Below, one piece after another: positions 17,530-63,419 of a DNA stretch of 64,000 bases. Every line of letters begins with the position of its first letter. The first letter of the stretch is position 1. The stretch comes from Candidatus Poribacteria bacterium (GTDB lineage Bacteria; Poribacteria; WGA-4E; WGA-3G), in NCBI GenBank assembly GCA_022827185.1, contig JAJDTM010000002.1:1560-65559 (forward strand). Reading direction: 5' to 3'. Position numbers and translations under genes: made by a program. The notes beneath the pieces are model-generated. The model was given only the letters and a program-made list of their open reading frames with translations. It was not told the origin of the DNA and ran no database searches.

Positions 17530-17558
17530 TTGACAACCTAATCTAAAGTCACTATAAT
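17530..17558 (+). promoter_or_regulatory. Consensus sigma70-type promoter (TTGACA-17-TATAAT)
   Basis: Exact TTGACA at 17530-17535 and TATAAT at 17553-17558 with a 17-nt spacer, about 230 nt upstream of the 17789 ORF. The leader contains a ctgcaggcggggtttaaaaccctgcag near-palindrome. Confidence 0.5.
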
Positions 17559-18013: not shown

Positions 18014-18040
18014 ATTTCGGAAGGAGAACAGATTAAAAAA

Positions 18041-20638: not shown

Positions 20639-20642
20639 AAGT

Positions 20643-20680
20643 AGTATCTCCTGTCCTATGGGTGGGAGATACAATTTTGC
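20643..20680 (+). terminator. Hairpin terminator after glgP
   Basis: gtatctcc-n13-ggagatac stem-loop followed by aattttgcg. Confidence 0.4.
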
Positions 20681-20682
20681 GT

Positions 20683-20710
20683 TGCTCAAACTCTTTTTTA
20701 AGGGTATAAT
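20683..20710 (+). promoter_or_regulatory. Putative sigma70-like promoter for hisB-glgC (TTGCTC-16-TATAAT)
   Basis: ttgctc at 20683 and tataat at 20705, roughly 85 nt upstream of the hisB start. Confidence 0.35.
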
Positions 20711-20793
20711 AGAGGTGCGCAGCTTGAAACGAATTTTGATAAAAAACGTAATCCCAAGCAACTACTTGACCGAACCGTAAGGGACGATAAAAA

Positions 20794-21381: not shown

Positions 21382-21406
21382 GACGGATGACAACTAAATT
21401 AGGAGC

Positions 21407-39109: not shown

Positions 39110-39164
39110 GGATCCTGAAAAAAAGACGTAAAATCGAATAATTTCTTAAAATTGAATGGCCCTG
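39110..39164 (+). repeat. Roughly 55-bp conserved intergenic motif shared with 10866-10920
   Basis: ggatcctgaaaaaaagacgtaaaatcgaataatttcttaaaattgaatggccctgg is about 90% identical to 10866-10920. Both lie about 100 nt upstream of a plus-strand gene. Confidence 0.55.
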
Positions 39165-39267: not shown

Positions 39268-40698
39268 TTGTCTACGATGAACTCGGAATTGATTATCACT
39301 AAAATATGCAACGCTATTGATCTGATGATCGAAAGTAGTAAGCCATATAAAGGGCTGTTCCCATCTATGCTACATCCGAAAACGGGTGAGATGCTAACAG
39401 AAAAACCGCCCAAAATTCCCGGTCAAAGGGATGGTGATCGCGCGCATCTCGGCACGAACTTGATCCACGATGAACCGTTGCTCGCCACAATGAACGTGCT
39501 TGCTGAAACCGAATCGAAACCGGAATACGCCGAAGCAGTGGATCAATACTTGGAACACTTTGCCCAACGTTGCACGCATACGGCGACCGGTCTGTTCCCT
39601 TGGGGTGAGCATTCGTTTTGGCAGCTGATTGAGGAACGTGTCGGGTGTTCTCGGAATCCAGACGGTGGTGCCGCAATTCACGATCATCTGCGTAAGGTTC
39701 CGCTGTGGCTCTGGCAAAAACTGAATACATATAATCCGGCATGTGTGCAAAGTTTCGCCGATGGCTTGGATTATCATTGGACAGAAGGCGACGGACTTGA
39801 ATACATCCGCCATGCGAATATCGACACAAAAGCGCATCTCGTTCGCGGGGGGCGAGCGTGTGATTTTCCACGGCATTCAGGCTTTTATATTTTCGATTTG
39901 GTGTTCGCATATACGCAAGATCAACGTCCTGAAACCCTTCAACAGATCCAGAATTATACCGATTACTGGTGGGAAAAGCGGGACGCGCGTGGGCTTTTAC
40001 GTATTGAGAGTCGTTCACCCAAAGAGGCAGAACGGTTTTTTGAGATGAATGCGCCGACGCAGACGTTCTCATTAGGGGTAAGTCTGCTTGAATCCGCAGC
40101 ATTGATAGAATCACTTCTCCCTGAATTGGCGGATCAGATGCGGCGATACGGCTTGGTTTACATTGACGGATTTCTCGCCGCCCCGCACAACCTCGAAACA
40201 CGTGAATTTATCAGTTTATGTGAGTGTGAGACGGATCGGATTGTTGAACGTATGTCCTCTTGGGGAAGCGTCTACGGTTCGGGAACTGTGTGCAGCACAG
40301 GGGTGCTATGTCTTGCAGGATGGCGATTGACGCAGAATGAAAGGTTGATGGAATACGCACGCGCCGTTGGCAGTACCTATCTTGATGAGAAATTTCCGGT
40401 TGACCAAGTTCACGCGGAGGCGTTCAAGATTCCAGCATCGGATGCGGGTCTCACACTTGAATTGTTTGCGGATCTCTACGACATCACCGGTGAATCGGTG
40501 TGGTTGGATGGTGGCATTGAACTTGCGGAGACAGTGTTGGAGGTCTATTTTCCCGATACGCTTCCATACGGTGCATCTGCGATTGATTGGTATGAATCAC
40601 AGATGGGGGCAGCGTTCCTGATTCACGGTTTGGCTCGAGTGGCACTGCTATCACTTCATCAAACATGTCCGCTTGCACCTAATTACACGGCGCGATAG
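39268..40698 (+). CDS. Hypothetical protein (476 aa), possibly alpha-helical toroid glycosidase/lyase-like
   Basis: Long ORF with good coding periodicity. No motif recognised. Confidence 0.4.
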   Translation: MSTMNSELIITKICNAIDLMIESSKPYKGLFPSMLHPKTGEMLTEKPPKIPGQRDGDRAHLGTNLIHDEPLLATMNVLAETESKPEYAEAVDQYLEHFAQRCTHTATGLFPWGEHSFWQLIEERVGCSRNPDGGAAIHDHLRKVPLWLWQKLNTYNPACVQSFADGLDYHWTEGDGLEYIRHANIDTKAHLVRGGRACDFPRHSGFYIFDLVFAYTQDQRPETLQQIQNYTDYWWEKRDARGLLRIESRSPKEAERFFEMNAPTQTFSLGVSLLESAALIESLLPELADQMRRYGLVYIDGFLAAPHNLETREFISLCECETDRIVERMSSWGSVYGSGTVCSTGVLCLAGWRLTQNERLMEYARAVGSTYLDEKFPVDQVHAEAFKIPASDAGLTLELFADLYDITGESVWLDGGIELAETVLEVYFPDTLPYGASAIDWYESQMGAAFLIHGLARVALLSLHQTCPLAPNYTAR

Positions 40699-46675: not shown

Positions 46676-47878
46676 GTGGATTGGATTCAAGCACCAGATC
46701 GCCTGGTTCTCACACTCAGTGAGGCCAAAGTGCGCGCAAAAGAAGGACGCGATCGGAATCCAAATATACTTCTCCTTGCCAGCATAGAATTTTATGGGGC
46801 ATCCCCAGAATCGCCTTATGCACTCAGAGATGAATCGGGAAATGTAATAATAGATCACAAATGGGATGGTGCTTTCGCGGACTTCAGGCATCCTGATATT
46901 CAAAAGAGGTTTATAGAGAAGGCACACGCGATTGCGCGATGCGGGCTTTTTGATGGAATCGCCATAGATCATTGGGGGAAACCTGGACTTGGAGATATGA
47001 CCTTAGAAGAAACTGTTGCCGCAAAAGATCGCATGATACAGGCCATTCGTGATGGTGTCGATGATGATTTCTTGATACTGGTAACGACGACGAACGAGAT
47101 TATTCCGACACAGCATCATGCGGAATATATCAATGGCTTTTTCATGGAAACTATTGAAGGTTATGAGGGCGGTTATACCTACGCAGGACTCGCTCACATC
47201 GAAAACACGCTGCTGTGGGCAGAAAAAAACCTCCGAGAGCCTCAAATAAACTGTTTGGCAGGTAGGGGCGTTAGGAGCGAACTGCTGGATAGTCCGAGAA
47301 ATCTACAATGGATGCGTCTATGGACGACAATGAGTCTGACACATTCTGATGGCTATGTCATGTTTACCATGGGTGGCAACCTTGACCATCCCGCCCACCC
47401 TTTTGAATTTTTGCCAGGTCATGCGGATTGGCATGCACAAGGCAAGCGTCACACTCACCAAAACAGCCACTACTGGTATGATTTCTGGGATGCTCCGCTG
47501 GGTCGTCCGATCGGTGGTGATGAAACCAAAGCACAGTTTTATGAGGATCGCGAGGGGTTGTTTATCCGAGAATTTACTAACGGCTGGGCGGTGTATAATC
47601 GCTCCGGCTCCGAACAACAGATTGAGTTTTCGGAAGAAGTCTCCGGCTGGGACAGTGGGGTGGCGCATCAACGCCAGCATACGTTGGCGGATTTGGATGG
47701 CGAGATTTATTTGAAAGCGGAAACCCCTCCCATTGCGGATGTCAATGGTGACGGGACGGTGAATGTCTTGGATCTGGTTATCGTCGCGAATGCGTTTGGG
47801 GAAGCAGCACCGGATTTGAATGGTGACGGGACGGTGAATGTGTTAGACCTTGTGCTGGTGGCGAATGCGTTTGAGTAG
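46676..47878 (+). CDS. Domain X plus a double-repeat type I dockerin (3' part of the split gene)
   Basis: Homologous to the C-terminal domain of the 43065 and 48186 proteins. Ends [46 protein letters not shown]. Confidence 0.6.
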
Positions 47879-48185: not shown

Positions 48186-50744
48186 ATGAAAATCAAGCCC
48201 TCTTTTTACTACAGTTTCCACCTTCTTTTTCTGATTCTCTATCTCAGTCTTACCCCTGTGCACGCCCAAGACTGGCTCCCTGACCCGGTGTTACGGAAAA
48301 CGATTCGGGAATCTCTGGGTCTATCGGCAAACACACCGCTCACAAAAGACTATATGCAACAACTGATACGTCTTGATGGAAATAACAAAGGCATCACGGA
48401 TCTCAGGGGTTTAGAGTTTGCGACGAACCTAAGAATCCTGCACTTGGGAGGTAATGAAAATAATATCACAGATATCAGTCCGCTTGCCAACTTAACAAAT
48501 CTTGTAGGGCTTCATATCTGGCGTGTTCGGCGTCACGACACGCATCGGGCACCCCTCGACATCCGTCCGCTCGCCAACCTCGTTAACTTAGAGGTGCTCT
48601 CTCTGGAGCGACAGGGACTTTCGGATATAAGCGTGCTTGCGAACCTGACAAAGCTTCATAAGTTAGCACTGACGCACAACAACATCTTGGACTTTAGCCC
48701 GTTAGCAGGATTGACGCATCTGCGGATATTGTGGATAAAAAACAACTGGGGGACGGATTTGAGTCCGCTCAAAGGGTTGAATATTACAGATTTTCGCTAT
48801 GACGAAGTGTGTGATTTCACATCACAAGGGGAGTCCGTCACTGCGCGTGTTGAGAACAGGACGTTTCCGTCGATAGTCGGGCTATTCCCGAAAGGGTCAA
48901 TAGAGGAGATGACCCGGTATGATTTCCATTATGGCACCCATTTCGGATTGTGGTGGAAGCGAACGGAAACCGAGCCGACACACGGCTTAGCGATTCGACG
49001 TTCAGGGGATATGGCGCAGGCGAGAGCGTACCGCCAACAGATGCTCCAACAGAATCCAAACATGTTGTTTTTTGTGGGGGTACCTTTGCTTAATTACAAA
49101 CCTTCCAATGCGGCAACGGCTTTTCCCGCAGATTCTGATTTTTGGCTGCGAGATCGCCAAGGGAATATCATCCAAAATGAGAATGATGCGTGGCTGCTGA
49201 ACATTTTGAACCCAGCGTTACAGGATGTTCAGATTGAAAGAATTGTAGGTTTTGCAAAGTGTGGGATTTTCGATGGTGCGCTGTTAGAAGGATTTACAAA
49301 TCATGGAATTGGTGCTGTGGGCAGCCAGTTTTACCCAGTCGTAACAGATGTGCCGTTAACGGAGGAAGCGATTATTGAGGCGTATCTCCGAATTCTAAGC
49401 GAGGTCCGCGCCCGCGTTCCTGAGGACTTTTTGATCGTCGTCAATGCTACGAGAACCAGACCGACCCGTTATGCGGCATACATCAATGGTAATGTGATGG
49501 AACCGGGTTGGGATTATTCCTACAAAGGACTTGCCGAGATTGAAAGCACTTTACTTTGGTCTGAGGAACATTTCCGGGAACCGCAACTGAATTGGGCACA
49601 AGGGTTTCTTATCACCTCGGAGCCCCCGGAGAGTCCTGGGAACCGTCAACGAATGCGTCTCTTTACAACGATGGGACTCACGCACTCTGATGGCTACATA
49701 AACGTCCATTATCATTCAGCGAAGTGGCAGCGATGGGGAGACATCGCTGAAAATTACTGGTATGACTTCTATGATGCCGACCTCGGCAAGCCGATTGGCA
49801 AAACAGCGCAACGCTGCGACGACTGCGACGGGCTCTTCGTGCGTGAGTTCACCAACGGTTGGGCGGTCTACAACCGGAGCGGCAAAGCACAGACGATCCA
49901 CTTACCCGTCAAAGCCACGGGTGTCGCAAGTGGTATCACAAACACCGAACACATCGTTCCAGATTTAGATGGCGAGATGTATCTGAAACAGGCACCGAGT
50001 GTGAATAGCATCGGCATTGTCACTGTGGTTGAGGTTGCGACCGGTGCGCCAGAGGAACCGGAATCCGAATGGATGCCGGATGCCGCCTTACGCGCAGTAG
50101 TTCGGAAGGAAATGGGACTCCCAACACATATCGCTTTGGAAAAATCCCGCATGCCACAGCTGATACATGTTGATGGAAATAACAAAGGCATCACAGACCT
50201 GACGGGTTTGGAGTTTGCGACGAACCTAAGAATCCTGCACGTCGGGGGGAATAAGAATCAGATAACCGACCTTCGCCCGCTTGCGAACTTGACGATCCTT
50301 GAGCATCTCTATATCTGGCGCACACCTCCAAAAGACCCCGCTTCGGTGAGAGTTCTTGACATCCGTCCGCTCGCCAAGCTCACCAACTTACATGCACTCT
50401 CACTGGCGGGAAACGGGATTACCGATATAGCCCTACTGGCGGGCATGAAGAAGCTCGTCAAACTCATCCTTACAGATAATCGGATTGAAGACTTTAGTCC
50501 GCTGGCTGGGCTGATGAGTTTACGAACGTTGAGGATTCGGAACAACCCCGCCACAGATTTCAGCCCACTTGCCGCTTTACCCCTTATTGAATTTCAACTT
50601 GATGCCGATGTCAACGCCGATGGCTTTGTGAATGTGCTTGACCTCGTTACCGTCGCGAATGCGTTTGGGGAAGCGGCACCCGATCTCAACGGTGATGGCA
50701 TCGTCAATATTCAAGATTTAATTATTGTCGCGAATGCGTTTTGA
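48186..50744 (+). CDS. Secreted protein: LRR, domain X, LRR and a C-terminal dockerin
   Basis: Signal peptide LFLILYLSLTPVHAQD. Two LRR blocks. Domain X motifs ([47 protein letters not shown]). Dockerin [45 protein letters not shown]. Confidence 0.75.
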   Translation: MKIKPSFYYSFHLLFLILYLSLTPVHAQDWLPDPVLRKTIRESLGLSANTPLTKDYMQQLIRLDGNNKGITDLRGLEFATNLRILHLGGNENNITDISPLANLTNLVGLHIWRVRRHDTHRAPLDIRPLANLVNLEVLSLERQGLSDISVLANLTKLHKLALTHNNILDFSPLAGLTHLRILWIKNNWGTDLSPLKGLNITDFRYDEVCDFTSQGESVTARVENRTFPSIVGLFPKGSIEEMTRYDFHYGTHFGLWWKRTETEPTHGLAIRRSGDMAQARAYRQQMLQQNPNMLFFVGVPLLNYKPSNAATAFPADSDFWLRDRQGNIIQNENDAWLLNILNPALQDVQIERIVGFAKCGIFDGALLEGFTNHGIGAVGSQFYPVVTDVPLTEEAIIEAYLRILSEVRARVPEDFLIVVNATRTRPTRYAAYINGNVMEPGWDYSYKGLAEIESTLLWSEEHFREPQLNWAQGFLITSEPPESPGNRQRMRLFTTMGLTHSDGYINVHYHSAKWQRWGDIAENYWYDFYDADLGKPIGKTAQRCDDCDGLFVREFTNGWAVYNRSGKAQTIHLPVKATGVASGITNTEHIVPDLDGEMYLKQAPSVNSIGIVTVVEVATGAPEEPESEWMPDAALRAVVRKEMGLPTHIALEKSRMPQLIHVDGNNKGITDLTGLEFATNLRILHVGGNKNQITDLRPLANLTILEHLYIWRTPPKDPASVRVLDIRPLAKLTNLHALSLAGNGITDIALLAGMKKLVKLILTDNRIEDFSPLAGLMSLRTLRIRNNPATDFSPLAALPLIEFQLDADVNADGFVNVLDLVTVANAFGEAAPDLNGDGIVNIQDLIIVANAF

Positions 50745-50965: not shown

Positions 50966-53080
50966 ATGCAACTAACTAAGAAACAAAACATTTTTATTTA
51001 CTTACTCATCTTTTGTGCGACACTATTCTTCGTATTTCCACTGATAACAAGTGCACAAACTGTTAACATTCCTGACGCGAATCTTCGCGAAGCAATCAAT
51101 GAGGCACTCGGTAAAGCATCAAATGCCCAGGTTACATTGAAGGAAATAGTGACGTTAACCCGCCTTACTGCGAATAACAGAGGTATCAGCGATTTAACAG
51201 GACTTGAAGTTGCGACAGGATTGGAGAGCGTAGAACTCCAGCATAATCAAATATCCGACTTATCCCCGCTCGCGGGGTTGATGAAACTGCGTGTTATACG
51301 GATGGGCAATAACCTTATATTTGATTTATCCCCGGTCGCAGGTTTAATCAACTTGGCAAGATTAGATATCTGGGAGAATTTGATTTCCGATTTGTCCCCG
51401 GTCGCAGGTTTAACCAACTTACTATCAATAAGTTTCGGGAGTAATTCGGTATTTGACTTATCACCCTTGGCGGGGTTAAGGAAGCTTGAGAGGATAAATA
51501 TGAGCCAAAACCCGCCAGCAGACCTCTCGCCCCTTTCAAAAATAATTGGTTTGACAGGTTTTCATTCTTGGGGCACCCCTATATTAGACCTCGCGCCTTT
51601 GGCGGAATTACCAAAACTCAGCGTCATAGATATCTGCGGGGGCGAGATATCGGACCTCTCCGCTTTAGCGAACGCGACAGGTTTGAAGGAACTGTATTTT
51701 GCTGGCAATCAGATCACGGACGTATCGCCGTTGGTGGGCTTAACAAATTTGACGAGACTGAATTTTGCAGAAAATGAAATATCGGACGTGTCACCACTTG
51801 CTGGATTAACCAACTTGACATGGATACGGATTAACCACAATCCAATATCCGATCTATCGCCTTTAGAAGGGTTAGGTATACCTATTGTTCACCATAATAC
51901 CCCGGCATTTCCACCGGGCGGTCCGAAAATCGAAGGACCATGGTTATGGGTACTTGTACCGGGGGAGCGTATTGGTGGTGGAGATTTGCTGGCAGAAGCG
52001 ACGGGTGGCACAGCGACAGAGGAGAAGGTTGCTACTGTTGGTGCTGCAGAGGGAAAGTCTGTTGGAGACAATGTTTGGGTAGCCGATAACATTACCGCGG
52101 TGGGACGCAATAACATCGGTGAAATGCTGAAACGCCAAGGCGTGGGAAACGACGGAGTCGTCTACGGTTCCACCACCTTGGAGTCACCACGAGAACAGGA
52201 AACAAAAATGTTCGTCGGCGCGCATGATGGTGTTGAAGTCTGGCTCAACGGGGCACTCATTCACCAGAAATCTGGTGGACATTGGGCGGAGGGTTACCAC
52301 ACCTTTTTTCCCGTTACGCTCAACGAAGGAACAAATGTGTTGTTAGTTGCTCTTGACAACCACCACGTTGATCAGTGGCGGGCATTTTTTGGATTTGACG
52401 TTGACACAGAATATACGGTAAATTCTCCGATTTCCCGAGCTCCATCTGAAATACCTGCTTATGATGTCAATGAGGATGGGCAAATCAGTATTCTGGATCT
52501 GATTCTGGTAGGTCAAGACTTGGGAAAAGCAAAGCCCACCAACGCGCGAACAGATGTGAATGGCGATGGAACTGTTAGTATCTCGGACCTCGTCCTTGTG
52601 GCACAACATCTCGGCGAAATAACAGGAATTCCTGCCTCGCCTTCCCCCTACACCTTACGCAGCATGGGGTTAGACGCGGCAACAGTCCACACGTGGATAG
52701 CACTTGCCGAGATAGAAAATGATGGCTCGCTCGTCTTCAAGCAAGCGATAGCGAATCTTCAACGGCTTTTAGCGTTGTTGATGCCCGAAAGGACAGCATT
52801 GCTTGTGAACTATCCGAATCCGTTTAACCCAGAGACATGGATACCCTACCAACTTGCTGAACCTGCCAAGGTCACTATACACATTTATGCGATGAGCGGT
52901 GCTTTGGTCCGGAAGTTAGATTTAGGACATCAGGCTGCTGGTATCTATAGTGAAAAGAACCGTGCAGCGTATTGGGATGGTCGCAACCAACTTGGAGAAC
53001 CTGTAGCGAGTGGTGTGTATTTCTACACGTTCACTACTGGCGACTTTACGGCGACGCGAAAAATGGTGATAAGGAAGTAG
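50966..53080 (+). CDS. Secreted protein: LRR, a roughly 180-aa unknown domain (domain Y), a dockerin and a T9SS-type C-terminal sorting domain
   Basis: Signal peptide. About 12 LRRs. Domain Y (GPWLWVLVPG...KSVGDNVW...SPREQETKMF). Dockerin DVNEDGQISILDL...[41 protein letters not shown]...VYFYTFTTGDFTATRKMVIRK. Confidence 0.75.
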   Translation: MQLTKKQNIFIYLLIFCATLFFVFPLITSAQTVNIPDANLREAINEALGKASNAQVTLKEIVTLTRLTANNRGISDLTGLEVATGLESVELQHNQISDLSPLAGLMKLRVIRMGNNLIFDLSPVAGLINLARLDIWENLISDLSPVAGLTNLLSISFGSNSVFDLSPLAGLRKLERINMSQNPPADLSPLSKIIGLTGFHSWGTPILDLAPLAELPKLSVIDICGGEISDLSALANATGLKELYFAGNQITDVSPLVGLTNLTRLNFAENEISDVSPLAGLTNLTWIRINHNPISDLSPLEGLGIPIVHHNTPAFPPGGPKIEGPWLWVLVPGERIGGGDLLAEATGGTATEEKVATVGAAEGKSVGDNVWVADNITAVGRNNIGEMLKRQGVGNDGVVYGSTTLESPREQETKMFVGAHDGVEVWLNGALIHQKSGGHWAEGYHTFFPVTLNEGTNVLLVALDNHHVDQWRAFFGFDVDTEYTVNSPISRAPSEIPAYDVNEDGQISILDLILVGQDLGKAKPTNARTDVNGDGTVSISDLVLVAQHLGEITGIPASPSPYTLRSMGLDAATVHTWIALAEIENDGSLVFKQAIANLQRLLALLMPERTALLVNYPNPFNPETWIPYQLAEPAKVTIHIYAMSGALVRKLDLGHQAAGIYSEKNRAAYWDGRNQLGEPVASGVYFYTFTTGDFTATRKMVIRK

Positions 53081-53117
53081 GTTGTCGCACTTTCAACCGA
53101 TAGTTAGGAGATTAACC

Positions 53118-56100
53118 ATGAGAATTAGTAAATACCTTTATCTGACAGTATTAATATTTATCGTATTAGGATTTGGAACCGCATCTGCGCAGCAGGATCT
53201 CGCGCAAGAGGCATACACTATCCTTCAAAAGAATTGTTCGCTATGTCATGGAGAACACGGCTCCTTTACCGAGGATTTGGTGCTTGAATACACATCACTC
53301 ATCGGGAATGGGGTTATTGTCCCTGGAAATCCTAATGCTTCGGAGTTCTATAAACGATTAATTGAGAATACACCCGAAAAACCGCGAATGCCGTGGGGAC
53401 AGCCTGCGTTGTCAGCGGATGCGCTTGAGACGATTCGTCAGTGGATTGCAGCGGGTGCACCGAATTGGGAGGTGCAATATGATGTCAACTTCATTACGAT
53501 GGATGCGATGCTTTCGGTGATTGAAGATCACGTCGCGTCGCTTTCGGCATTTGATCGTCCGTCCGCTCGCTACTTCACGCTGACGCATCTCTATAACGCT
53601 GGTGGAAGTCCTGAGGCACTTGATGCCTATCGGCGTGCACTCTCGAAGTTGGTGAATAGTCTCTCCTGGGGGTTTGAAGTGATCAAGCCAGAACCGATTG
53701 ACGAACAAGAGATGATCTTTTATATTGATTTGCGCCACTATGAGTGGGATAGAAACGAAGCGTGGACGCAGATTGAACGGGAATATCCCTACAGCATTGA
53801 ATTTGATTCGGAGACACAAGCGGGTCTGCACGAAAAACTGACGAATTTACGTACAGAAATGGACTGCGAAGTGCCGTTTGTCTATGTGGATTGGTTCCTT
53901 GCTAATGCGTCGTTACCACCGCTGTACCACGATATTCTGGACCTGCCAGAAACGGATCAGGAATTAGAGGAGCAACTGGGAGTCAATGTGACGCGAAATA
54001 TCAACAATGCTCCCGGGGTTCACGTCTGGCGTGCGGGTTTCCTCAAGTCGGGTGTGTCAGGGTACAACCGTGTTGTGGAACGGCACACCTCCGACTATGG
54101 TGCGTATTGGAAAAGCTACGACTTTGCGGGGGATTCGGACGTTCAGAATATTTTTATACATCCGCTGACTTTTAGACACGACGGTGGGGAGGTCGTGTTC
54201 CATCTGCCGAACGGTTTGCAAGGGTATTATATCTCTGATGCGTCTGGGAATCGGATAAATGAGGCACCAACGACGATCGTATCCAACCCAGCGGCAAGCA
54301 ATCCTGCCGTGCGCAATGGTCTCTCTTGTATCGGTTGCCACACAGAAGGCATGAAAACGTTTGAAGATGAGGTGCGTGCGGAGATTATGCTGCGGTTCCC
54401 TGAGGGACCGGTGAAGGATCAGGGATTGCGTCTGTATGTGGAACAATCAAAGATGGATGCGCTTGTGGCGAGGGACACAGCTCGTTACAGGGGAGCACTT
54501 GAAAAGACGGGTGGTGTGTTTGGTGGTACGGTTGAACCGGTACATCGGTTCTATGAGGAGTTTCAACGTCCTGTTGAGGCTGCACACGCTGCGGCTGCTG
54601 TCGGTTTAGAGACAGAGATGTTCCGTCAAGAGATTCGAGATAAACAGCGTTTACGGGACTTAGGTTTGGCGGGGCTATTGGAGGATAGGGGTGTGAGTCG
54701 GGATACATGGACCTCCAACTTTCCCGAAGTGATTTCGGCGCTGCATTCTCCCGACGATACAACAACACAGCCGGTCGATCCAGAAACTGACCTACGTCCT
54801 GGTGATTTAGTCTCTATTCCTGATCCGAACCTTCGTGCTGTGATAGAAAGGTTGCTCGACAAAGCCCCAGGTGCTTTGATTACGGCGGCGGATATGGCAA
54901 GGTTGACGCGGATTGTTGCCGATGATGCTGGGATTAGTAATTTGACGGGACTTGAGGCGGCAACGCAGTTGGAACGCATAGAATTTCGTCGGAATTCGAT
55001 ATCCGATTTATCTCCACTGAGAGGCTTAATCCGACTCAATAACATCAAGCTCCGGGGGAATCGGATAACCGATGTATCACCGCTTGCTGACTTAGTTCGT
55101 GTGGATTGGTTAGGACTTGAGGATAACGAGATAACAGATTTATCTCCGCTGAAGGGATTAACCAGATTAAACGGGATAGGGATTTCAGGCAACCCAATAT
55201 CCGATGTATCACCGCTTGCAAACTTGACCAGTTTAGAAGGCATCAACGCTTGGCGCACACCTATCTCGGATTTCTCATCCTTGGCAAAATTAACGAGATT
55301 CAGGTGGATAGGATTTGGTGATGATAAGTCGATATCAGCACTTCCATCACTGAAGGGATTGAAAAGTTTGAGACGGTTGGAAATTAACAACTGTAGCATC
55401 TCGGATCTCTCCGGATTGGCGGAATTGACACAGTTGGAATGGTTAGGATTGAATAATAACCAGATATCGGATATATCTCCATTGCGAAATTTAAGGGGTT
55501 TAGAACATCTGAATCTTAATGCTAACATTATCGAAGATGTATCGCCGCTTGCGAAGTTAACAAAGTTAAAACTTCTACATCTTGTGAACAACATTATCTC
55601 GGATGTATCGCCGCTTGCAGGATTAACTAACTTGGAACGGTTAGACCTCCGCAACAATGCGATATCTGACTTTTCACCTTTGGAAGGATTATTGGAGGAG
55701 ACATTTGTCAGAATAGAAGGTAACACGGGTGTTCTCCGGCGAGGAGCTCCAAAGATACAAGGGCCATGGTTGTGGGTGCTCGTGCCTGTGCCCGGGTCTG
55801 ATGCCTTCCGTAACATAGATTTGCTTGCACGAGCAAGTAATGGAGATATAACCGAGCGGGAGATCGCTACAAACGGTGCGACAGAAGGGAAGTCTGTCGG
55901 TGATAACGTCTGGTTTTCCGAGAAAATATCTACGGATAGGAACAACATCAGAACCATGCTGGGTGCCCTCGGTATGTTAGAAGAGGGCAGTCGCTCGAAT
56001 CTCGTCTACGGTTCGCTCACCCTTGATTCACCACGAGAACAACAGACAAAGATGTTTGCTGGGAGCGATGATCTGCATAAAGTCTGGTTCAATGGACAGT

Positions 56101-57755
56101 TGGTTAGCGAAGCTGTCCACGGAGGGACAAGTGGTGATTACCAGGAATCTTTCCGTGTTACGTTGAAGCAAGGAAAAAATGTGTTATTAGTTGCAATATA
56201 TGATTATGGGGGTGGATGGGGAGGACATTTTGGGTTTGCGCCTGATGCTGAATATACGGTCTTATCCCCTGACACCAGATTCTCCTTTTCCACAGCGGCG
56301 ACGCGAATTAAAGTTGGCGATAGGTTCACTGTTCAGTTCAAAACAAAAAACATTTCCGACTTAGCGGGATGGCGATCTGATATTACATTTGATCCCGCAG
56401 TGCTAAAAGTCAATAACGTCCGCGAGGGTAGTTTCCTGAAACAAGGTGGTGGACGCACCCACTTCTTGAAAGGCACGATTGATAATACGATGGGTAGAAT
56501 CGCCGATGTCGGTTCTGCACGGATCTCTGAAGGTGGAGTTAGCGGTGAAGGTGCCCTGTTGTCAATTACATTCACGGCAAAGGTGAATGGTGAGAGCCGA
56601 TTGTCACTACGAAAATTTCAAGCTGGTTCCAGTACGGGTGATGCAATTTCTGATCGACCCCCTGATATGATTATTACTGTCGAGGATCCGTCGTCCTTAG
56701 ATGTAAGTGATGGCCCATTTTCCCTTTCTACGGATGTAACACCTGTTCGCCTTGGTAATACCTTTAACCTTCTTCTCAAAGCGGAAGATGTTACGGATTT
56801 AGCGGGATGGCAGACTGATATTGCGTTTGACCCCGATGTGCTTGAAACCGTTGAGGTGAACGAAGGCGATTTTCTGAAGGCGGAAGGCGGGGATACCTTC
56901 TTTTTTCAAGGCGCGATTGATAACACGGCAGGTAAAATTACAGGTCTCAGCGCAGCGAAGTTGAAGGGCGGTGGTAACGGCGCAGGTATGCTACTATTGG
57001 TTACATTCAAGGCGAAGGCTGTCGGGGAAACACGGGTGACACTTAGCAATTTCTTTGCTGGCTCCAGCAGCGGCGAAACTATCTCTTCAGAAGTTCCCGA
57101 AATTAGGATCACTATTGAGGATCGCGCGTTTTCTGCTTCGGATGTCAATCAGGACGGTCGAGTGAACGTTCAGGATCTAATCGTGGTTGCACAACATTTA
57201 GGTGCTGATGCGTCTGTCAACCGCCGAGCGGATGTCAATGGCGATGGAACTATTAACGTTTTGGACATCATCGTTATCGCACAAAATTTAGGTGAATCAA
57301 CAGCGGCTGCGCCTTCCAATGTTGCTGCTATAGACAGTTTAGAATTATATCCAGCAATGGTTCAGGCATGGATAGCGGAGGCAGAGGCTAAGAATGACGA
57401 TTCGATTGCCTTCCGACAGGGTATCGAAAACCTTCAACGACTTTTAGCGTCGCTGCTTCCTGAAAAGACAGTGTTGCTGCCGAACTATCCGAACCCGTTC
57501 AATCCCGAAACATGGATACCCTATCATCTTGCTGAAGCTGCGGATGTGACAGTGCATATCTATGCTACCGATGGGGTCTCGGTTCGGACGTTGGCGTTAG
57601 GGCATCAGGCTGCTGGCACCTATGAGCGTCGTAGCCGTGCGGTGTATTGGGACGGCAAAAACGAGGTCGGTGAGCCTGTCGCGAGTGGTGTCTATTTTTA
57701 TACCCTAACGGCAGGTGATTTCACTGCTACGCGGAAACTGTTGATACGGAAATAG
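53118..57755 (+). CDS. Giant secreted scaffold-like protein: PSCyt1-like CxxCH domain, a second CxxCH, LRR, domain Y, two cohesin-like modules, a dockerin and a T9SS-type CTD
   Basis: ATG 53118 with aggag RBS and signal peptide. CSLCH at about 53235 followed by ...PRMPWGQPALSADALETIRQWIAAGAP, the PSCyt1 pattern. CIGCH at about 54325. LRRs 54820-55700. Domain Y 55740-56280. Cohesin-like beta-sandwich modules at about 56290-56690 and 56700-57120 (DLAGW..DI.FDP.VL). Dockerin at 57130-57300. CTD at 57480-57755. The track ORF starts at TTG 53082, one base after the previous stop. Confidence 0.75.
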   Translation: MRISKYLYLTVLIFIVLGFGTASAQQDLAQEAYTILQKNCSLCHGEHGSFTEDLVLEYTSLIGNGVIVPGNPNASEFYKRLIENTPEKPRMPWGQPALSADALETIRQWIAAGAPNWEVQYDVNFITMDAMLSVIEDHVASLSAFDRPSARYFTLTHLYNAGGSPEALDAYRRALSKLVNSLSWGFEVIKPEPIDEQEMIFYIDLRHYEWDRNEAWTQIEREYPYSIEFDSETQAGLHEKLTNLRTEMDCEVPFVYVDWFLANASLPPLYHDILDLPETDQELEEQLGVNVTRNINNAPGVHVWRAGFLKSGVSGYNRVVERHTSDYGAYWKSYDFAGDSDVQNIFIHPLTFRHDGGEVVFHLPNGLQGYYISDASGNRINEAPTTIVSNPAASNPAVRNGLSCIGCHTEGMKTFEDEVRAEIMLRFPEGPVKDQGLRLYVEQSKMDALVARDTARYRGALEKTGGVFGGTVEPVHRFYEEFQRPVEAAHAAAAVGLETEMFRQEIRDKQRLRDLGLAGLLEDRGVSRDTWTSNFPEVISALHSPDDTTTQPVDPETDLRPGDLVSIPDPNLRAVIERLLDKAPGALITAADMARLTRIVADDAGISNLTGLEAATQLERIEFRRNSISDLSPLRGLIRLNNIKLRGNRITDVSPLADLVRVDWLGLEDNEITDLSPLKGLTRLNGIGISGNPISDVSPLANLTSLEGINAWRTPISDFSSLAKLTRFRWIGFGDDKSISALPSLKGLKSLRRLEINNCSISDLSGLAELTQLEWLGLNNNQISDISPLRNLRGLEHLNLNANIIEDVSPLAKLTKLKLLHLVNNIISDVSPLAGLTNLERLDLRNNAISDFSPLEGLLEETFVRIEGNTGVLRRGAPKIQGPWLWVLVPVPGSDAFRNIDLLARASNGDITEREIATNGATEGKSVGDNVWFSEKISTDRNNIRTMLGALGMLEEGSRSNLVYGSLTLDSPREQQTKMFAGSDDLHKVWFNGQLVSEAVHGGTSGDYQESFRVTLKQGKNVLLVAIYDYGGGWGGHFGFAPDAEYTVLSPDTRFSFSTAATRIKVGDRFTVQFKTKNISDLAGWRSDITFDPAVLKVNNVREGSFLKQGGGRTHFLKGTIDNTMGRIADVGSARISEGGVSGEGALLSITFTAKVNGESRLSLRKFQAGSSTGDAISDRPPDMIITVEDPSSLDVSDGPFSLSTDVTPVRLGNTFNLLLKAEDVTDLAGWQTDIAFDPDVLETVEVNEGDFLKAEGGDTFFFQGAIDNTAGKITGLSAAKLKGGGNGAGMLLLVTFKAKAVGETRVTLSNFFAGSSSGETISSEVPEIRITIEDRAFSASDVNQDGRVNVQDLIVVAQHLGADASVNRRADVNGDGTINVLDIIVIAQNLGESTAAAPSNVAAIDSLELYPAMVQAWIAEAEAKNDDSIAFRQGIENLQRLLASLLPEKTVLLPNYPNPFNPETWIPYHLAEAADVTVHIYATDGVSVRTLALGHQAAGTYERRSRAVYWDGKNEVGEPVASGVYFYTLTAGDFTATRKLLIRK

Positions 57756-57826
57756 GCGTTTGATGAACGGTAGTCGGGATTCGGGAATAGGTGCCTACCA
57801 GTTCATATTCTCCTTGTTAGGGCTTT

Positions 57827-57871
57827 TATGAAACACCCTCATTTAATTGAGGGTGTTTCATTATTCGCGGA
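57827..57871 (+). terminator. Strong hairpin terminator after the scaffold gene
   Basis: atgaaacaccctca-tttaat-tgagggtgtttcat, a perfect 14-bp stem, followed by tattcg. Confidence 0.5.
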
Positions 57872-57894
57872 GGCTTCGTACCGCAAAGACCACA

Positions 57895-57960
57895 ATGACC
57901 TCGTCGCCGTCGCAAACGCCTTCGGCAAGGATACTCTCGGTATCAACGGTGTCTGAAACC
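57895..57960 (+). pseudogene. Orphan dockerin-coding remnant in intergenic DNA
   Basis: Encodes NDLVAVANAFGKDTLGINGV*, which resembles the [15 protein letters not shown] dockerin segment. There is no upstream ORF. Confidence 0.45.
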
Positions 57961-58316: not shown

Positions 58317-58880
58317 ATGTCAAAAACTTTTAGTTCGGAAACTTTCAAAAAAACATTCGATGCCTATATCCTAAGGTGGCATATATCGGAAGCCGTCTTA
58401 TTGATTTTGGCTTTCTTACCTTTCTTGGCGTACGGCATAGCGTACTATTTGGATCTTTCATGGATACCTATCTTGGGTGACATAACTTTTGGGGCAATTT
58501 CATCTGGTATTGTTTCTTTTGGAGCCATCTCTTTTGGATTTGTTTCGATTGGGGCCATATCTTTCGGTGTCATAGCTATTGGCAGTTCGTCTTGCGGGAT
58601 CATAGCAATCGGCGCAATATCCGCGGGGGTTTTTGCTTTTGGAAATGCCTCCGCTGTTGGACTTATCGCTATTTCTACAGGTTCAACTGGGATAACTCCC
58701 CGGGTCGGTGGCACTGCTGTTGGCGTTATAGCGATCGGTCAGCATGCAAGCGGCGTATACGCGCTCTCCTATGAAAGAAAAGACAATAGCGTTTATCAGT
58801 TTTCACCGGAACGCCAAGATATAGAGGCTGTCACACTCTTTACCCGCTGTCTCCGAAAGTTTAAGAAAGCGTATGCATAA
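58317..58880 (+). CDS. Small membrane protein with tandem glycine-zipper repeats (GAISxG x about 10)
   Basis: GAISSGIVSFGAISFGFVSIGAISFGVIAIGSSSCGIIAIGAISAGVFAFG. The DNA is periodic over 58490-58650. Confidence 0.5.
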   Translation: MSKTFSSETFKKTFDAYILRWHISEAVLLILAFLPFLAYGIAYYLDLSWIPILGDITFGAISSGIVSFGAISFGFVSIGAISFGVIAIGSSSCGIIAIGAISAGVFAFGNASAVGLIAISTGSTGITPRVGGTAVGVIAIGQHASGVYALSYERKDNSVYQFSPERQDIEAVTLFTRCLRKFKKAYA

Positions 58881-59090: not shown

Positions 59091-61160
59091 TTGGAGGTAA
59101 AAAAGATGATCAGCAGAATTAAACGCGCCGTGGTTGTATTACTTATCCTTAGCAATTTCTCTCTGGCGTTCGCTGCACCGCCTAAAGTGACACGTTTTAC
59201 ACTCAGTAATGGTATCCGTGTTGTCAGTCTCTACGTTGAGGCATCCACGGATGTCATTATCCTCAGTTATTTGCCCCTCGGACTTGTCACTGATGGGAAA
59301 ACAAAGGCACAATGGAGCCATCTGATTGAACACTTGACACTCCGAACGACGGGACCGATTAATTACCCTTCAAGTAGTGCAGAAACGATGGCTGATAACA
59401 TGCGCTTGGAATCTATCGGGAACACCGATAACTGGACGCAGGGTTTGGAACGCCACGCAAAGTGGCTTTCGGGGTTACCGTTTTCAGAGGAGAGTTTAGC
59501 CGAGGAGTTACCGAACGCTTTGTCCGAGATTGACTTTACTGAAACGAGATTGGCGACCCACAAATGGGCATCCGCTGCATGGAACCAAGTTTTTCGACAC
59601 GGTGAAACGGATATATCCATGCGGGGTGATGTTCAATCCGCACAGTTAGGTGAATTACAAGAATACCGAGATCGGCATTTAGTCCAAGCAGATCGGGTGC
59701 TTTTGTGTGTCATCGGTGGAGTTGACTCGGAAACACTGCAGCCCGTAATGGAAACGCAACTCGGAACTATCAACCTAACAGCAAAGACGCTGCCACCAGC
59801 AACAGTAACATCGGGGGTGGTGAAAGACCGAACTGCCGCTTGGGATATCAATGTAACCCACTACATAGAAACTTACGCGATACCCCACTCGGAAGATGAA
59901 GATTATCCGGCGTTGTATATAACGAACGCGCTCCTGAACTTAGGACTCATGCAGGATACCCAACTGAAGGAATTAACGGGTTTTGTGCTCTGCAGTGTTG
60001 ATCTCGTTACACCTGAACAGACCTATCTACAGATCAGTGCTTCACTCAAGCCAGATACAGATATAGAAGTGGTTAAGCAGCGCATTAAACAGTTGATAAA
60101 CCGGCTCAAGCAGCCAGAGAACAACGCGCAGGTCGCTATGGCTGCCCCGTCACTTTCCAGGCAATTCAGTTCACCACTGGATATAGAGATGATGAAGCAA
60201 CAAAAACCGGCAGGTGTGTCAGAAACCATGATGCTTGGTAACATCGGTCTATGGTGGGGGATGCTGGAATATCAATATGGTGAGATTTTACCGCAGCTCG
60301 CGGGGGCATTTGCCAAGGTCTCTGCGGCTGATGTTGCCGATGTTGTCAATCGGTATTTAACCGAAGATGCGCGGATGACGTTAGTTCTCACACCACATGA
60401 TGCGTTTCTTGATGAATTCGGCGCGGTTAACGAAATTGAGATAAAGCAACCCGAACCGCCGCCTGCGGAGCCGATGCCGGAAGCGAGTGAAGCAGACATG
60501 ACGAGAGCCAAAGAAATCCTCGCTGCAGCAGTTGACGCACACGGTGGACTTGAGAAACTGCAAGCAGTCAAGAACATCGTCATGGAGGGGCACGCAACAG
60601 CCAATTCACCCACAGGACCGCAAATAGAAGGCACATCATACTACGTCCACCCTGACAAATTTAGACAAGATTTGAAGATGCCGCAAGGTGAAACGGCTTA
60701 CGTCTTTGATGGCACTTCTGGATTCGTGTTGACACCCATGGGGGTTCAACCAATACCACCACAGATGGCTGCCACTTTTAAAGATGCGGTTTTCCGAGAG
60801 CCGTTGTGGCTACTGACGAACCTCTCACAAAACGACATCCCGATCCAGTATGCTGGCACAGAAGACCTACAAGGTAAACCTACGTCTATTCTGCTGCTTC
60901 CGCAGCCATCTGGCGAGATGATGAAACTCTTTGTGAGCGAGGATACGCATTATATTGTGAAAATTGCCTATCCTGATTCCTCTCAAGGTATTACTGTTAA
61001 TCGGGAAACGCTCTTGAGTGATTACCGCGATGTTGATGGCGTTAAAGTCGCGTATCATGTTGTGCAGAACATAGAGGGGCAGCTCTTTAGCGAAAGCCGG
61101 ATAACACGTATTGCGTTGAACGCTGAACTTGAGGAATCGCTATTTCAGGAACCGAAGTGA
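59091..61160 (+). CDS. Secreted M16 (pitrilysin/insulinase) family peptidase-like protein with an intact HxxEH motif
   Basis: Signal peptide. TRFTLSNGIRVV M16 N-terminal signature. HLIEH inverted zinc-binding motif at about nt 59323. Two-domain length (689 aa). Confidence 0.65.
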   Translation: MEVKKMISRIKRAVVVLLILSNFSLAFAAPPKVTRFTLSNGIRVVSLYVEASTDVIILSYLPLGLVTDGKTKAQWSHLIEHLTLRTTGPINYPSSSAETMADNMRLESIGNTDNWTQGLERHAKWLSGLPFSEESLAEELPNALSEIDFTETRLATHKWASAAWNQVFRHGETDISMRGDVQSAQLGELQEYRDRHLVQADRVLLCVIGGVDSETLQPVMETQLGTINLTAKTLPPATVTSGVVKDRTAAWDINVTHYIETYAIPHSEDEDYPALYITNALLNLGLMQDTQLKELTGFVLCSVDLVTPEQTYLQISASLKPDTDIEVVKQRIKQLINRLKQPENNAQVAMAAPSLSRQFSSPLDIEMMKQQKPAGVSETMMLGNIGLWWGMLEYQYGEILPQLAGAFAKVSAADVADVVNRYLTEDARMTLVLTPHDAFLDEFGAVNEIEIKQPEPPPAEPMPEASEADMTRAKEILAAAVDAHGGLEKLQAVKNIVMEGHATANSPTGPQIEGTSYYVHPDKFRQDLKMPQGETAYVFDGTSGFVLTPMGVQPIPPQMAATFKDAVFREPLWLLTNLSQNDIPIQYAGTEDLQGKPTSILLLPQPSGEMMKLFVSEDTHYIVKIAYPDSSQGITVNRETLLSDYRDVDGVKVAYHVVQNIEGQLFSESRITRIALNAELEESLFQEPK

Positions 61161-61226: not shown

Positions 61227-63419
61227 ATGGATAAAGACGACGTTCAGTTGATTCATAGCACCTTGTCTGGCGACGATGAGGCGTTCGGTACCTTGGTTCA
61301 AAGATACCAAAAGAGTGTTCACGCCTTGGCGTGGCGGAAGATCGGTGATTTTCATTATGCTGAGGAGATTACGCAAGACACTTTCCTTCAAGCTTATGAG
61401 AAACTCTCGACACTCAAGAATCGCAATCAATTTGCCGGGTGGTTGTATGTTATCACCAATAATCTATGTACCGATTGGCTCCGACGGAAAAAACCTGCGA
61501 TGCAACCGCTGGGGGATGCGTCTGTGACAGCAATAGATAAGTTAACCTATGAGCGTTATGTATTGGAACAACGTGAGAGAGAAGTAACTGAGCATCGTCG
61601 TGAAGTCGTCAAACGACTCCTGGACAAATTGCCAGAGAGCGAACGTACTGTCGTAACGCTCTACTATCTCGGCGAGATGACCACCAAGGAAATTGGCAAA
61701 TTCTTGGGGGTATCGGCGAACACAATTACGAGTCGGCTTCGGCGGGCGCGGGAGCGTTTACAAACGTCAGATGAACGCTTGATTAACGAAACGCTCGGCG
61801 GTTGGCAATTGTCTAACAATCTATACGAGAACATCATGCGGGAGGTTGCTGATATAAACCCGGTATCGCCACCGACTGGAAAACCGTTGTTACCGTGGAT
61901 GGCTCTTAGTACGGCTACGGTTCTGGTTGTATTGCTGCTCGGTGTGAGTCATCAATATCTTGCGAGATTTCAGAGACCGTATAGTTTCGAGGCACAGTCC
62001 GAACCGACTATTGAAATTATTGAGGCGGCTGTTATTCTTGAGACTGACGCAAAACCGGCTATCCGCAATCAAATCGGACGGGCTGCCACCCCCAATAAAA
62101 ACAACAGTGTCGGTTCACAGATTTCTGAGGATCTTGAGGCACCTAATGCTTCTGAGGATTTCGCTACGCTTTTTGCTGCTGATGCCACCCCTGAAGTGAC
62201 CCGTTTCACTTTAAGCAACGGCATCCGTGTTGTCAATCTCCACGTTGAGAATTCCACAGATGTCATTATCCTCAGTTATTTGCCCCTCGGCCTCGCCACT
62301 GACGGGAAAGCAAAAGCATATTGGAGCCACCTCATTAATCATCTAACATTCCAAACCATGGAACCGATTGACTATAAGACAGGTAGCGCGGAGACGTTGG
62401 CTGACAATATACGCTTGGAGTTTATCGGTAATACCGACAACTGGACACGGGGTTTAGAACGCCATGCTCGATGGCTTTCTGAACTACCTTTTTCAGCAGA
62501 AGGTCTCGCTGAGGCACGCCCGAATGCCTTACGCCAGTTTGACTATATTGAAGAGAACTTGGCAACACATAAGTTGGCTTACGCTGCGTGGAACCAAGTC
62601 TTTCGGCATGGTGAAACCGATATCCGCATGCGTAGTGGCGTTCAATCGGCGCAACTCAGTGAACTCCAAGCGTATCGCGATCGACATTTGGTCCAAGCAG
62701 ATCGCGTCCTTTTGTGCGTCACTGGTGGCATTGATCCCGAAATATTGAAAGAGACTATGGAAAAACAACTCGGCGTTATCAATTTAACCGAAAAAACGCT
62801 TCCGCATCCAACAGTCCCTCCAGAGATAGCGAAAGATCAAAACGCTACTTGGGATATCAACGTAACCCACTATATGGAAACCTACGCGGTACCACACTCT
62901 AAGGACGCAGACTATCCGGCATTGTATATAGCGGGTGCACTGCTGAGTTTAGCATTCATGCAGGATACGCAATTGAAAGCATTGACAGGTGGTGCTTTCT
63001 GTAACCTTGACCTAATCACTCCAGAAGGGACTTATTTACAGATCAATGTTTCGCTGAAGCCGGATGCAGATATAGGAAAGGTCAAGCAGCGGATTGGTCA
63101 GTTGATAAACCGGTTAAAGCAACCCAAAAACAACGCGCAAGTCGCTATGGCTGCTCCCTTTTTCGCCATGCAATTCAGGGCACCCTTGGATGTAAAGAGG
63201 GTAATGCAACAGCAGCCTGTGGGCGTGTCAGAAACTATGGTCCTTGGTAACATCGGTTTACAGTGGGGAATGCGGGAATACCAGCACGGCGATGCCTTAT
63301 CCCAACTTGCAAGTGCATTTGTCAACGTCTCCGCGGCGGATGTTGCCAACGTCGTCAACCGCTACCTAACCGAAGATCGCCGGATGACGTTAGTTCTCAC
63401 GCCACGCGCCGTGGAATGA
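61227..63419 (+). CDS. Single-chain fusion: ECF sigma factor, one TM helix and an M16-like domain with HxxNH (catalytic Glu replaced)
   Basis: The sigma and TM module is about 70% identical to the 43065 gene (HALAWRKIGDFH.AEEITQDTF, QYL.RFQRPYSFEA.SEPTI.II.A.V.LETDAKPA). The extracytoplasmic part is about 80% identical to the N-terminal half of the 59091 protein, but HLIEH becomes HLINH (gaa to aat at about 62327). Confidence 0.75.
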   Translation: MDKDDVQLIHSTLSGDDEAFGTLVQRYQKSVHALAWRKIGDFHYAEEITQDTFLQAYEKLSTLKNRNQFAGWLYVITNNLCTDWLRRKKPAMQPLGDASVTAIDKLTYERYVLEQREREVTEHRREVVKRLLDKLPESERTVVTLYYLGEMTTKEIGKFLGVSANTITSRLRRARERLQTSDERLINETLGGWQLSNNLYENIMREVADINPVSPPTGKPLLPWMALSTATVLVVLLLGVSHQYLARFQRPYSFEAQSEPTIEIIEAAVILETDAKPAIRNQIGRAATPNKNNSVGSQISEDLEAPNASEDFATLFAADATPEVTRFTLSNGIRVVNLHVENSTDVIILSYLPLGLATDGKAKAYWSHLINHLTFQTMEPIDYKTGSAETLADNIRLEFIGNTDNWTRGLERHARWLSELPFSAEGLAEARPNALRQFDYIEENLATHKLAYAAWNQVFRHGETDIRMRSGVQSAQLSELQAYRDRHLVQADRVLLCVTGGIDPEILKETMEKQLGVINLTEKTLPHPTVPPEIAKDQNATWDINVTHYMETYAVPHSKDADYPALYIAGALLSLAFMQDTQLKALTGGAFCNLDLITPEGTYLQINVSLKPDADIGKVKQRIGQLINRLKQPKNNAQVAMAAPFFAMQFRAPLDVKRVMQQQPVGVSETMVLGNIGLQWGMREYQHGDALSQLASAFVNVSAADVANVVNRYLTEDRRMTLVLTPRAVE

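Follow-up and report, generated by a model that had tools for sequence, protein, structure and literature searches.

Two probably ancient tandem paralogs and the conserved C-terminal domain of repeat proteins in a poribacterial contig

A stretch of 64,000 nucleotides (nt) from Candidatus Poribacteria (contig JAJDTM010000002.1; hereafter the window) encodes three proteins ending in a C-terminal domain (CTD) of the kind associated with the secretion system of type IX (T9SS). They are the products of gene A (1-5145), gene B (50966-53080) and gene C (53118-57755), the latter two being neighbours preceded by gene D (48186-50744). B and C have a new domain in common, here called domain Y, and both end in a cassette made up of a linker and the CTD. 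The original prediction saw in this the outcome of module shuffling, and in the cassette an export tag that had recently spread by recombination among the three genes. We consider another interpretation very probable: B and C would be ancient tandem paralogs of fixed module order, the CTDs of the window would be alike through strong purifying selection acting across thousands of poribacterial proteins and not through recent copying, and the CTD would be exchanged between paralogs over long time scales. As first stated, the finding largely over-reads a conserved domain that is under ordinary purifying selection.

The order common to both proteins is a leucine-rich repeat (LRR) block, domain Y, a dockerin, a helical linker and the CTD. 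B is colinear with residues ~560-1545 of C, its C-terminal two thirds, and in the alignment of both proteins one insertion accounts for the cohesin pair of C; these cohesins and a cytochrome-like N-terminal part are unique to C.

Divergence of the paralogs and of the three CTDs

Between B and C, domain Y is 52% identical in amino acids (aa) and 59% in nucleotides, with a proportion of synonymous differences (pS) of 0.68, and the dockerin, linker and CTD together are 61% identical over 208 aa. Both proteins do end in a shared linker and CTD, but these are far from the near identity initially claimed (62% aa identity in the linker, 74% in the CTD). Similarly, gene A does end in the same CTD of ~93 aa, 74-76% identical to those of B and C, but this CTD directly follows a repeat array, with neither a dockerin nor the WIAxAE...NLQRLLA linker. 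The high nucleotide identity attributed to the cassettes was not found either. Over the cassettes as delimited in the original prediction, blastn gives 70.5% for A-B, 75.0% for A-C and 72.9% for B-C, and megablast, which requires a word of 28 identical nt, returns no match between them. In codon alignments of the 93-codon CTDs, the identities are 67% (A-B), 71% (B-C) and 73% (A-C), with third-position identities of 0.40-0.50, pS of 0.64-0.82 and longest identical runs of 11-14 nt. An independent repeat finder places the B/C cassette at 70%, below several other paralogous pairs of the window (73-87%).

The alignment of B and C is synonymously saturated in every module (pS 0.57-0.76). By this measure the linker and CTD (0.68-0.74) are as saturated as the LRR and domain Y (0.68-0.76), contrary to what a recent spread of the cassette would predict, and the third-position identity of the CTD (0.43) falls among those of the other modules (0.36-0.54). 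What decreases stepwise is the non-synonymous divergence (dN): 0.49 in the LRR, 0.43 in Y, 0.38 in the dockerin, 0.25 in the linker and 0.19 in the CTD. Since synonymous sites are saturated and the dN of the CTD is low, the higher protein identity of the cassette reflects constraint and not recency. No 30-codon window of the alignment exceeds 79%; a conversion tract in the second dockerin repeat, where third-position identity reaches 0.67-0.70 over 30 codons, was considered and discarded as too short and too weak.

Codon choice was evaluated by comparing the identical codons found among identical amino acids with the number expected from the window's own codon usage. The pair A-B has 27 identical codons (24.8 expected, P 0.32) and the pair B-C has 30 (24.5 expected, P 0.09); a converted pair from a related genome (locus L055, see below), used as a control, has 74 of 82. 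The background was provided by 116 CTDs from the compared loci, which make up 6538 between-genome pairs and 132 same-genome pairs. CTDs from different genomes are 0.70 ± 0.05 identical in nucleotides, the window pairs are at 0.68, 0.71 and 0.74, and, depending on the window CTD considered, 32 to 99 of the 115 CTDs on other contigs resemble it more closely than do its paralogs in the window. As judged from these comparisons, the CTDs were not recently copied between A, B and C, and their likeness is kept by purifying selection.

The age of the paralogs was studied by blasting the window modules against the open reading frames (ORFs) of 78 loci. In at least 22 of them, all from Poribacteria, a C-type gene comes immediately after a B-type gene, and this recurrence suggests that the duplication is ancient. 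The C-type architecture is found in many copies per genome, frequently arranged in tandem; among its variants are forms with a single cohesin or a pair and forms in which the LRR-Y unit is present two to three times. C-type proteins with two or three consecutive LRR-Y units (2189-2425 aa) are found at L031, L041 and L052, and show that LRR and Y have been duplicated together within the protein. In 23 genomes, the B-B and C-C identities exceed the B-C identity by 8-16 points in the LRR, Y and dockerin, and in these same modules B-C identity is equal within and between genomes. The retention of a gene-type signal, together with this equality, implies that the duplication predates the divergence of the lineages and that both genes were vertically inherited. 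Being colinear, ancient and repeatedly found in tandem, B and C are not the mosaics that module shuffling would have produced. The signal that distinguishes B from C is nearly gone in the linker (0.026) and the CTD (0.016) of these 23 genomes, which is consistent with long-term exchange or with extreme constraint on these sequences.

The closest locus, L006, comes from the metagenome-assembled genome SB0101; a 6.9-kb alignment covering B and C has 88.4% identity. In nucleotides, B's CTD matches that of its L006 ortholog at ~91%, versus 71% for that of C, and the ratio of dN to synonymous divergence (dS) between the B orthologs is 0.17 in the CTD, 0.18 in the linker, 0.14 in Y and 0.40 in the LRR. 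The linker and CTD cassette has 7606 relatives at E<=1e-3, the named ones being Candidatus Poribacteria. A search of 1.84 billion cluster representatives gave 862 relatives of domain Y at E<=1e-3 and 133 at E<=1e-30, at many positions within proteins and with up to 7 matched stretches per protein. In GTDB species representatives, Y has 403 relatives; the best 80 of these are almost all labelled Candidatus Poribacteria, and a few only 'uncultured bacterium'.

Nature of the CTD and its linker

The three CTDs score above the TIGR04183 cut-off of 23 bits (39.5 in A, 35.7 in B and 27.1 in C), and the matches end at the last residues of the proteins. They are also above the cut-off of PF13860 (FlgD_ig; 35.2 bits vs 27 in C). 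PF18962 remains below its own cut-off of 27 in B (23.0 bits) and A (22.7 bits) and is not listed for C. The AlphaFold2 (AF2) model of the cassette, which has a predicted local distance difference test (pLDDT) of 86.9, is made up of a dockerin, a disordered spacer, a helical hairpin corresponding to the linker (helices 77-90 and 95-111 of the model, pLDDT 86-93) and a beta-sandwich CTD. The linker has no Pfam or NCBIfam match. Foldseek relates the CTD model to FlgD immunoglobulin (Ig)-like domains, to the CTDs of PorU (6za2) and PorZ (5m11) and to the translocon-bound CTDs of RemA and NucA (8gl6_D and 8glk_D, target-normalised TM-scores, TMt, of 0.67-0.69).

The designation of these genes as T9SS cargo agrees with the TIGR04183 scores and with the fold of the CTD, but neither the 64-kb window nor its 10-kb 3' extension encodes SprA/Sov, PorV, PorU, PorK-N or any other T9SS component, according to gene calls and Pfam; for the time being it is the tag by itself that earns them this label. 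TIGR04183 domains were already reported on poribacterial repeat proteins by Kamke et al. 2014 (PMC3909097), who found no Por/T9SS structural genes in single-cell genomes, and a search of the literature on Poribacteria combined with cohesin, dockerin, cellulosome or T9SS retrieved nothing specific apart from that article. One possibility, somewhat unlikely in our opinion, is that the FlgD-Ig-like CTD and its helical linker are not a T9SS signal in these organisms and that they serve another export route, envelope anchoring or oligomerisation, in which case the purifying selection would reflect that other partner. The two absences just mentioned would fit such a scenario, as would the fact that PF13860 outscores PF18962 and the conservation of a helical linker that has no counterpart in the family models. 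Nevertheless, the curated cut-off of TIGR04183 is passed in all three genes, the predicted fold superposes on CTDs from T9SS proteins, including the translocon-bound ones, and the genomes surveyed in 2014 were incomplete single-cell assemblies.

CTD exchange in related genomes

In the L055 locus (OX639992.1), the orthologs of B and C share a 3' tract of ~270-300 nt that is 92-98% identical and has a sharp breakpoint. Third-position identity within the tract is 0.87-1.0 and the two CTDs are ~97% identical in nucleotides, whereas the linker and dockerin of the same genes are only 40-66% identical. More generally, an identity of 85% or more is reached by 17 of the 132 same-genome CTD pairs but by 0.6% of the between-genome pairs, and several same-genome pairs display a gradient of identity that decreases from the CTD to the linker and the dockerin and is much lower upstream. 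The idea of an export tag that behaves as a separately exchangeable unit is supported by these sequences from related genomes; among the three CTD copies of the window, the same comparisons detect no exchange event.

The orthologs of C provide another type of discordance. The window C and the L006 C are 93-97% identical over ~700 nt up to ~57525, just past the NPFNPETWIPY codons, and from there on their CTDs are only 52-78% identical. Downstream of the CTD of C, ~140 nt have no ungapped similarity to L006, and synteny is back at 57896 (84%). The non-orthologous patch, comprising the CTD body and the 3' flank, covers 57525-57895 of the forward strand according to the ungapped identity profile, blastn synteny and the dS of each module, which is 2.5 in the CTD versus 0.07-0.57 in every other module of C. 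The dockerin and linker of C are 83-94% identical to those of the L006 ortholog. Comparable discordances limited to the CTD are seen in other ortholog pairs. A chimeric assembly was rejected as an explanation, as both flanks are syntenic and identical runs between the paralogous CTDs of the window are 14 nt at most. The C ortholog of L006 is itself split into two overlapping ORFs (~10299-10351 of that locus), by a frameshift or an assembly error.

The discordance could be explained if, after the separation from SB0101, the window C had acquired its CTD and 3' flank from an unsampled CTD-bearing gene other than A or B. The sharp drop in identity, the high dS of the CTD and the similar cases in other orthologs are all compatible with this scenario, which we nonetheless regard as unlikely. 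In nucleotides, the window C CTD shares 81-87% with its C-type counterparts from no fewer than 8 other genomes, and nothing sampled comes closer to the L006 copy than 73%. Since the former is close to other C-type sequences and the latter is isolated, the replacement is more likely to have happened on the SB0101 side, a polarity that these identities favour and do not prove. The downstream flank of C is common to L006 only, and synteny favours neither lineage. A protein database search for a donor of the C CTD found nothing above 86% aa identity beyond the same locus; an apparent donor at 99% (P0361) is no paralog but the D-B-C locus itself, as it stands in another long-read assembly, which is frameshifted. 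Finally, a recent spread of the linker and CTD cassette among A, B and C themselves, by recombination or gene conversion, is hardly credible: the mechanism is present in relatives and the nucleotide identity of the B/C cassette (67-70%) is somewhat above that of the LRR and Y (55-59%), but this excess is confined to non-synonymous sites, the pairs do not depart from the between-genome background in identity, no identical run exceeds 14 nt, A has no linker at all, and true conversion tracts in the family are 94-98% identical with a third-position identity of ~0.97.

Several points weigh against the interpretation of B and C as ancient paralogs whose CTDs have been kept alike by selection. In the codon test, the pair A-C has 35 identical codons where 24.0 are expected (P 0.004), a weak residual synonymous signal, which makes the CTDs of A and C younger than full saturation, although their dS is still ~1.4. 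Between the window and L006, one of the two lineages carries a replaced CTD in C; were it that of the window, C would have taken part in exchange since the species split. In addition, the analysis is confined to the 64 kb of the window, out of a 262-kb contig, which leaves some chance that A or B has recently given or received a CTD elsewhere in this genome. The functional chain presented below (T9SS-like export, cohesin-dockerin assembly and ligand binding by Y) is one that we infer, in a phylum in which Kamke et al. 2014 found no Por structural genes.

Organization of the locus and comparison with known systems

Gene B (704 aa) is supported by its translation, by Pfam matches (LRR_4, Dockerin_1, FlgD_ig), by TIGR04183 and by an identical public gene call on the scaffold that encodes it (ENA ERZ23491282 scaffold_66, 262 kb). 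It lies on the forward strand, as do gene C, the CTD of A and the two dockerin genes upstream. After a signal-peptide-like N-terminus comes an internalin-like LRR block (aa ~33-305, 51062-51880; PF12799 E 1.7e-32), 47.5% identical in aa to that of C. It is followed by domain Y (aa 311-490, 51896-52435), a type I dockerin (aa 497-570, 52454-52675; PF00404 E 1.1e-9 over aa 499-549) predicted by AF2 to form two helices with Ca-loop motifs, the linker (WIAxAE...NLQRLLAxL, aa 576-617, 52691-52816), predicted to be a helical hairpin, and the CTD (last 93 codons and stop, 52799-53080), a T9SS type A or FlgD Ig-like beta sandwich.

The ORF of gene C opens at a TTG (53082), which would leave the single nucleotide after B that was originally described. 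The likely start is the ATG at 53118, which has an AGGAG 7 nt upstream, is also chosen by the public gene call and is followed by a signal-peptide-like N-terminus; the spacer between B and C is therefore 37 nt. The N-termini of B and C, judged by eye, are basic, hydrophobic and of the AxA type; gene A runs off the window. The 1545-aa product of C has Pfam matches to PSCyt1, LRR_4, Cohesin (twice), Dockerin_1 and FlgD_ig. Behind its N-terminus lies a dihaem-cytochrome-like region (aa 26-545, 53193-54752) with two invariant CxxCH motifs; the whole region is absent from B. This region of ~520 aa is 59-90% conserved across Poribacteria, and an alignment of 21 poribacterial copies has invariant C15/C18/H19 and C379/C382/H383. 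Its first ~100 residues resemble a class I cytochrome (FoxE 5mab profile match, E 6e-5; likeness to a cbb3 subunit); they are the only part matched in a PDB sequence search, the ~400 residues around the second CxxCH belonging to no family. The LRR block (aa ~560-870, 54795-55727; PF12799 E 1.1e-36) is colinear with that of B, and domain Y again follows it (aa 880-1056, 55755-56285; alignment to Y of B and motif scan), an arrangement on which the original prediction was right. Then come the two cohesins (approximately aa 1057-1195 and 1196-1335, 56286-57122), identified by two PF00963 stretches (E 3.9e-19, 69.7 bits, above the Pfam cut-off) and by the gap in the alignment with B, the dockerin and linker (aa 1338-1412 and 1417-1458, 57129-57491; PF00404 over aa 1341-1391, alignment to B) and the CTD (last 93 codons and stop, 57474-57755; TIGR04183, PF13860). 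A minus-strand ORF of 443 aa (54626-55957) lies antisense to the LRR block of C; rather than a gene, it is taken to be a side effect of the repeats in the LRR coding sequence. Directly 3' of C, 58317-58880 encodes a glycine-rich, repetitive, hydrophobic protein of 187 aa without Pfam match, probably a membrane protein.

A six-frame motif scan of the 64-kb window found exactly three CTDs (PNPFNPETW, at the ends of A, B and C) and two copies of domain Y. The CTD of A occupies 4864-5145 (last 93 codons and stop; translation, TIGR04183). Upstream of it, positions 1672-4700 encode ~11 diverged repeats of ~105 aa, and within 3541-4609 a 315-nt unit is repeated in tandem 3.4 times with 89% identity, a homogenisation far more recent than that of any pair of window CTDs. 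Two other dockerin proteins precede B, both without CTD according to Pfam and the gene calls: a GHL15-dockerin gene (46676-47878) and D (48186-50744), which has an LRR-GHL15-LRR-dockerin organization. PF00404 is above the Pfam cut-offs in both genes as well as in B and C (26-39 bits), and the dockerins of the 46676-47878 gene and D are candidate partners for the cohesins of C. The same-strand genes upstream also include a fusion of an extracytoplasmic function (ECF) sigma factor with LRRs and an LRR-only protein.

Domain Y has no Pfam or NCBIfam match at E<=0.01. Its best sub-threshold matches are Glyco_hydro_2_N (PF02837, E 0.011) and BetaGal_ABD2 (PF13364, E 0.013, 16.7 bits vs a cut-off of 23), and a PDB profile search yields a beta-galactosidase at E 0.13. 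The AF2 model (pLDDT 89.7, predicted TM-score, pTM, 0.87) comprises a small alpha/beta part and a beta sandwich, for which Foldseek proposes modest matches to GH2 N-terminal sugar-binding domains, CBM35 and PA14 (E 4e-4, query-normalised TM-scores, TMq, of 0.3-0.45). On this basis, Y is predicted to be a galactose-binding-like beta sandwich.

Other repeats and paralogs were observed in the window. Two ECF sigma-70 factors (43065-45602 and 61227-63419) are fused to large C-terminal extensions: one contains LRRs and, at its C-terminal end, a 50-nt HYWYDFWD-coding repeat that it has in common with the two GHL15 genes, and the other contains an inactive M16 peptidase domain and adjoins an M16 paralog (59091-61160, 73-77% nt identity). 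Two tandem minus-strand paralogs without Pfam match (24784-25647 and 25791-26633) are 78-87% identical in nucleotides, closer to each other than any of the CTD cassettes. A 47-nt intergenic repeat (10874-10920 and 39118-39164, 91% identity) lies upstream of an alpha-amylase-family gene (10965-13040) and of a pectate-lyase-like gene (39268-40698), and may be a shared regulatory element. The first of these genes opens a glycogen/alpha-glucan cluster (10965-22705) that includes CBM48/alpha-amylase family proteins, a glucan phosphorylase, a GlgC-like nucleotidyltransferase and a faint glycogen-synthase-like match.

These features suggest how the system might work. A Sec signal peptide would take the B- and C-type proteins to the periplasm, and the CTD would then direct their export across the outer membrane and their attachment to the surface, as happens with type A substrates of the T9SS. 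C could act as a surface scaffold whose cohesins would hold its dockerin-bearing neighbours (the GHL15-dockerin protein, D and B), the LRR and the sugar-binding-like domain Y being the putative ligand-binding parts. Between paralogs of the family, the CTD, alone or accompanied by linker and dockerin, would be exchanged over long periods. A bolder proposal, which we put forward as a speculation with a small chance of being right, is that the dockerin, helical hairpin and CTD form a portable, recombination-prone surface-display tag in a phylum without recognised T9SS, that the near-invariant stretch coding for NYPNPFNPETWIPY is the crossover point for tag swaps, and that the B/C family builds a surface network of cohesins and dockerins by which hosts or glycans are recognised. 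If true, this would represent both a new route of export or anchoring and a new kind of cell-surface assembly.

The novelty of these results is modest. It lies in domain Y as a family without Pfam or NCBIfam model, in the conserved and expanded B/C family and in clean examples, from related genomes, of conversion or replacement limited to the CTD. Poribacteria are largely sponge-associated, and the B-then-C pair, with the C-type architecture, offers a defined family in which to study the display of LRR and lectin-like modules in this phylum. The CTD-limited events may serve to delimit the functional sorting signal, and they bear on a question dating from 2014, namely the export route of TIGR04183-tagged proteins in a phylum with no T9SS found so far. 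The presence of TIGR04183 CTDs on poribacterial surface proteins (PMC3909097) and the rearrangement of modules in the gingipains and HagA (PMC5266723) were already known.

Several known systems resemble parts of this one. The internalins are comparable in their LRR units of ~22 residues, and the LRRs of the window partially match the InlA and InlH models. Yet the scores (163-235 bits) are well below the cut-offs (1050-1600), there is neither an LPXTG or GW anchor nor an inter-repeat Ig domain, and the LRR is followed by domain Y instead. Domain Y, in turn, resembles the galactose-binding-like sandwiches (PF02837, PF13364, CBM35, PA14) in its predicted fold and sub-threshold matches, but it has an additional N-terminal alpha/beta part with an invariant GPKIxGPWLW motif, it is not joined to a catalytic domain and it stays below the threshold of every model. 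The cohesin pair of C, together with the type I dockerins that B, C, D and the 46676 gene encode, recalls cellulosomal scaffoldins, and the two dockerin proteins of the locus that have a GHL15 glycoside-hydrolase-like domain recall cellulosomal enzymes. In contrast to cellulosomes, this putative assembly, known here from sequence, belongs to a Gram-negative-type organism, its anchor would be a T9SS-like CTD and not an SLH domain or a sortase signal, and its cargo consists mostly of LRR and domain Y rather than cellulases.

The closest likeness is to the T9SS type A CTDs (TIGR04183/PF18962) of RgpB, PorZ, PorU and RemA, which are also C-terminal beta sandwiches of ~90 aa on multidomain proteins with a signal peptide (in B and C a putative one, judged by eye). 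The poribacterial CTD differs in belonging to a phylum without recognised T9SS machinery, in its unusual uniformity (~70-88% aa identity among the copies compared, with an invariant NYPNPFNPETWIPY start) and in the conserved helical hairpin and the dockerin that usually stand before it. The gingipains and HagA of P. gingivalis (Dashper et al. 2017, PMC5266723) are a precedent for the rearrangement of modules between paralogs with T9SS CTDs, for which the authors invoke allelic exchange and, more generally, gene conversion by homologous recombination. In that case, the adhesin domains are exchanged and the CTD is simply conserved; the window copies bear no trace of recent exchange, and it is in the related poribacterial genomes that the CTD itself has been exchanged, sometimes together with the linker and the dockerin.

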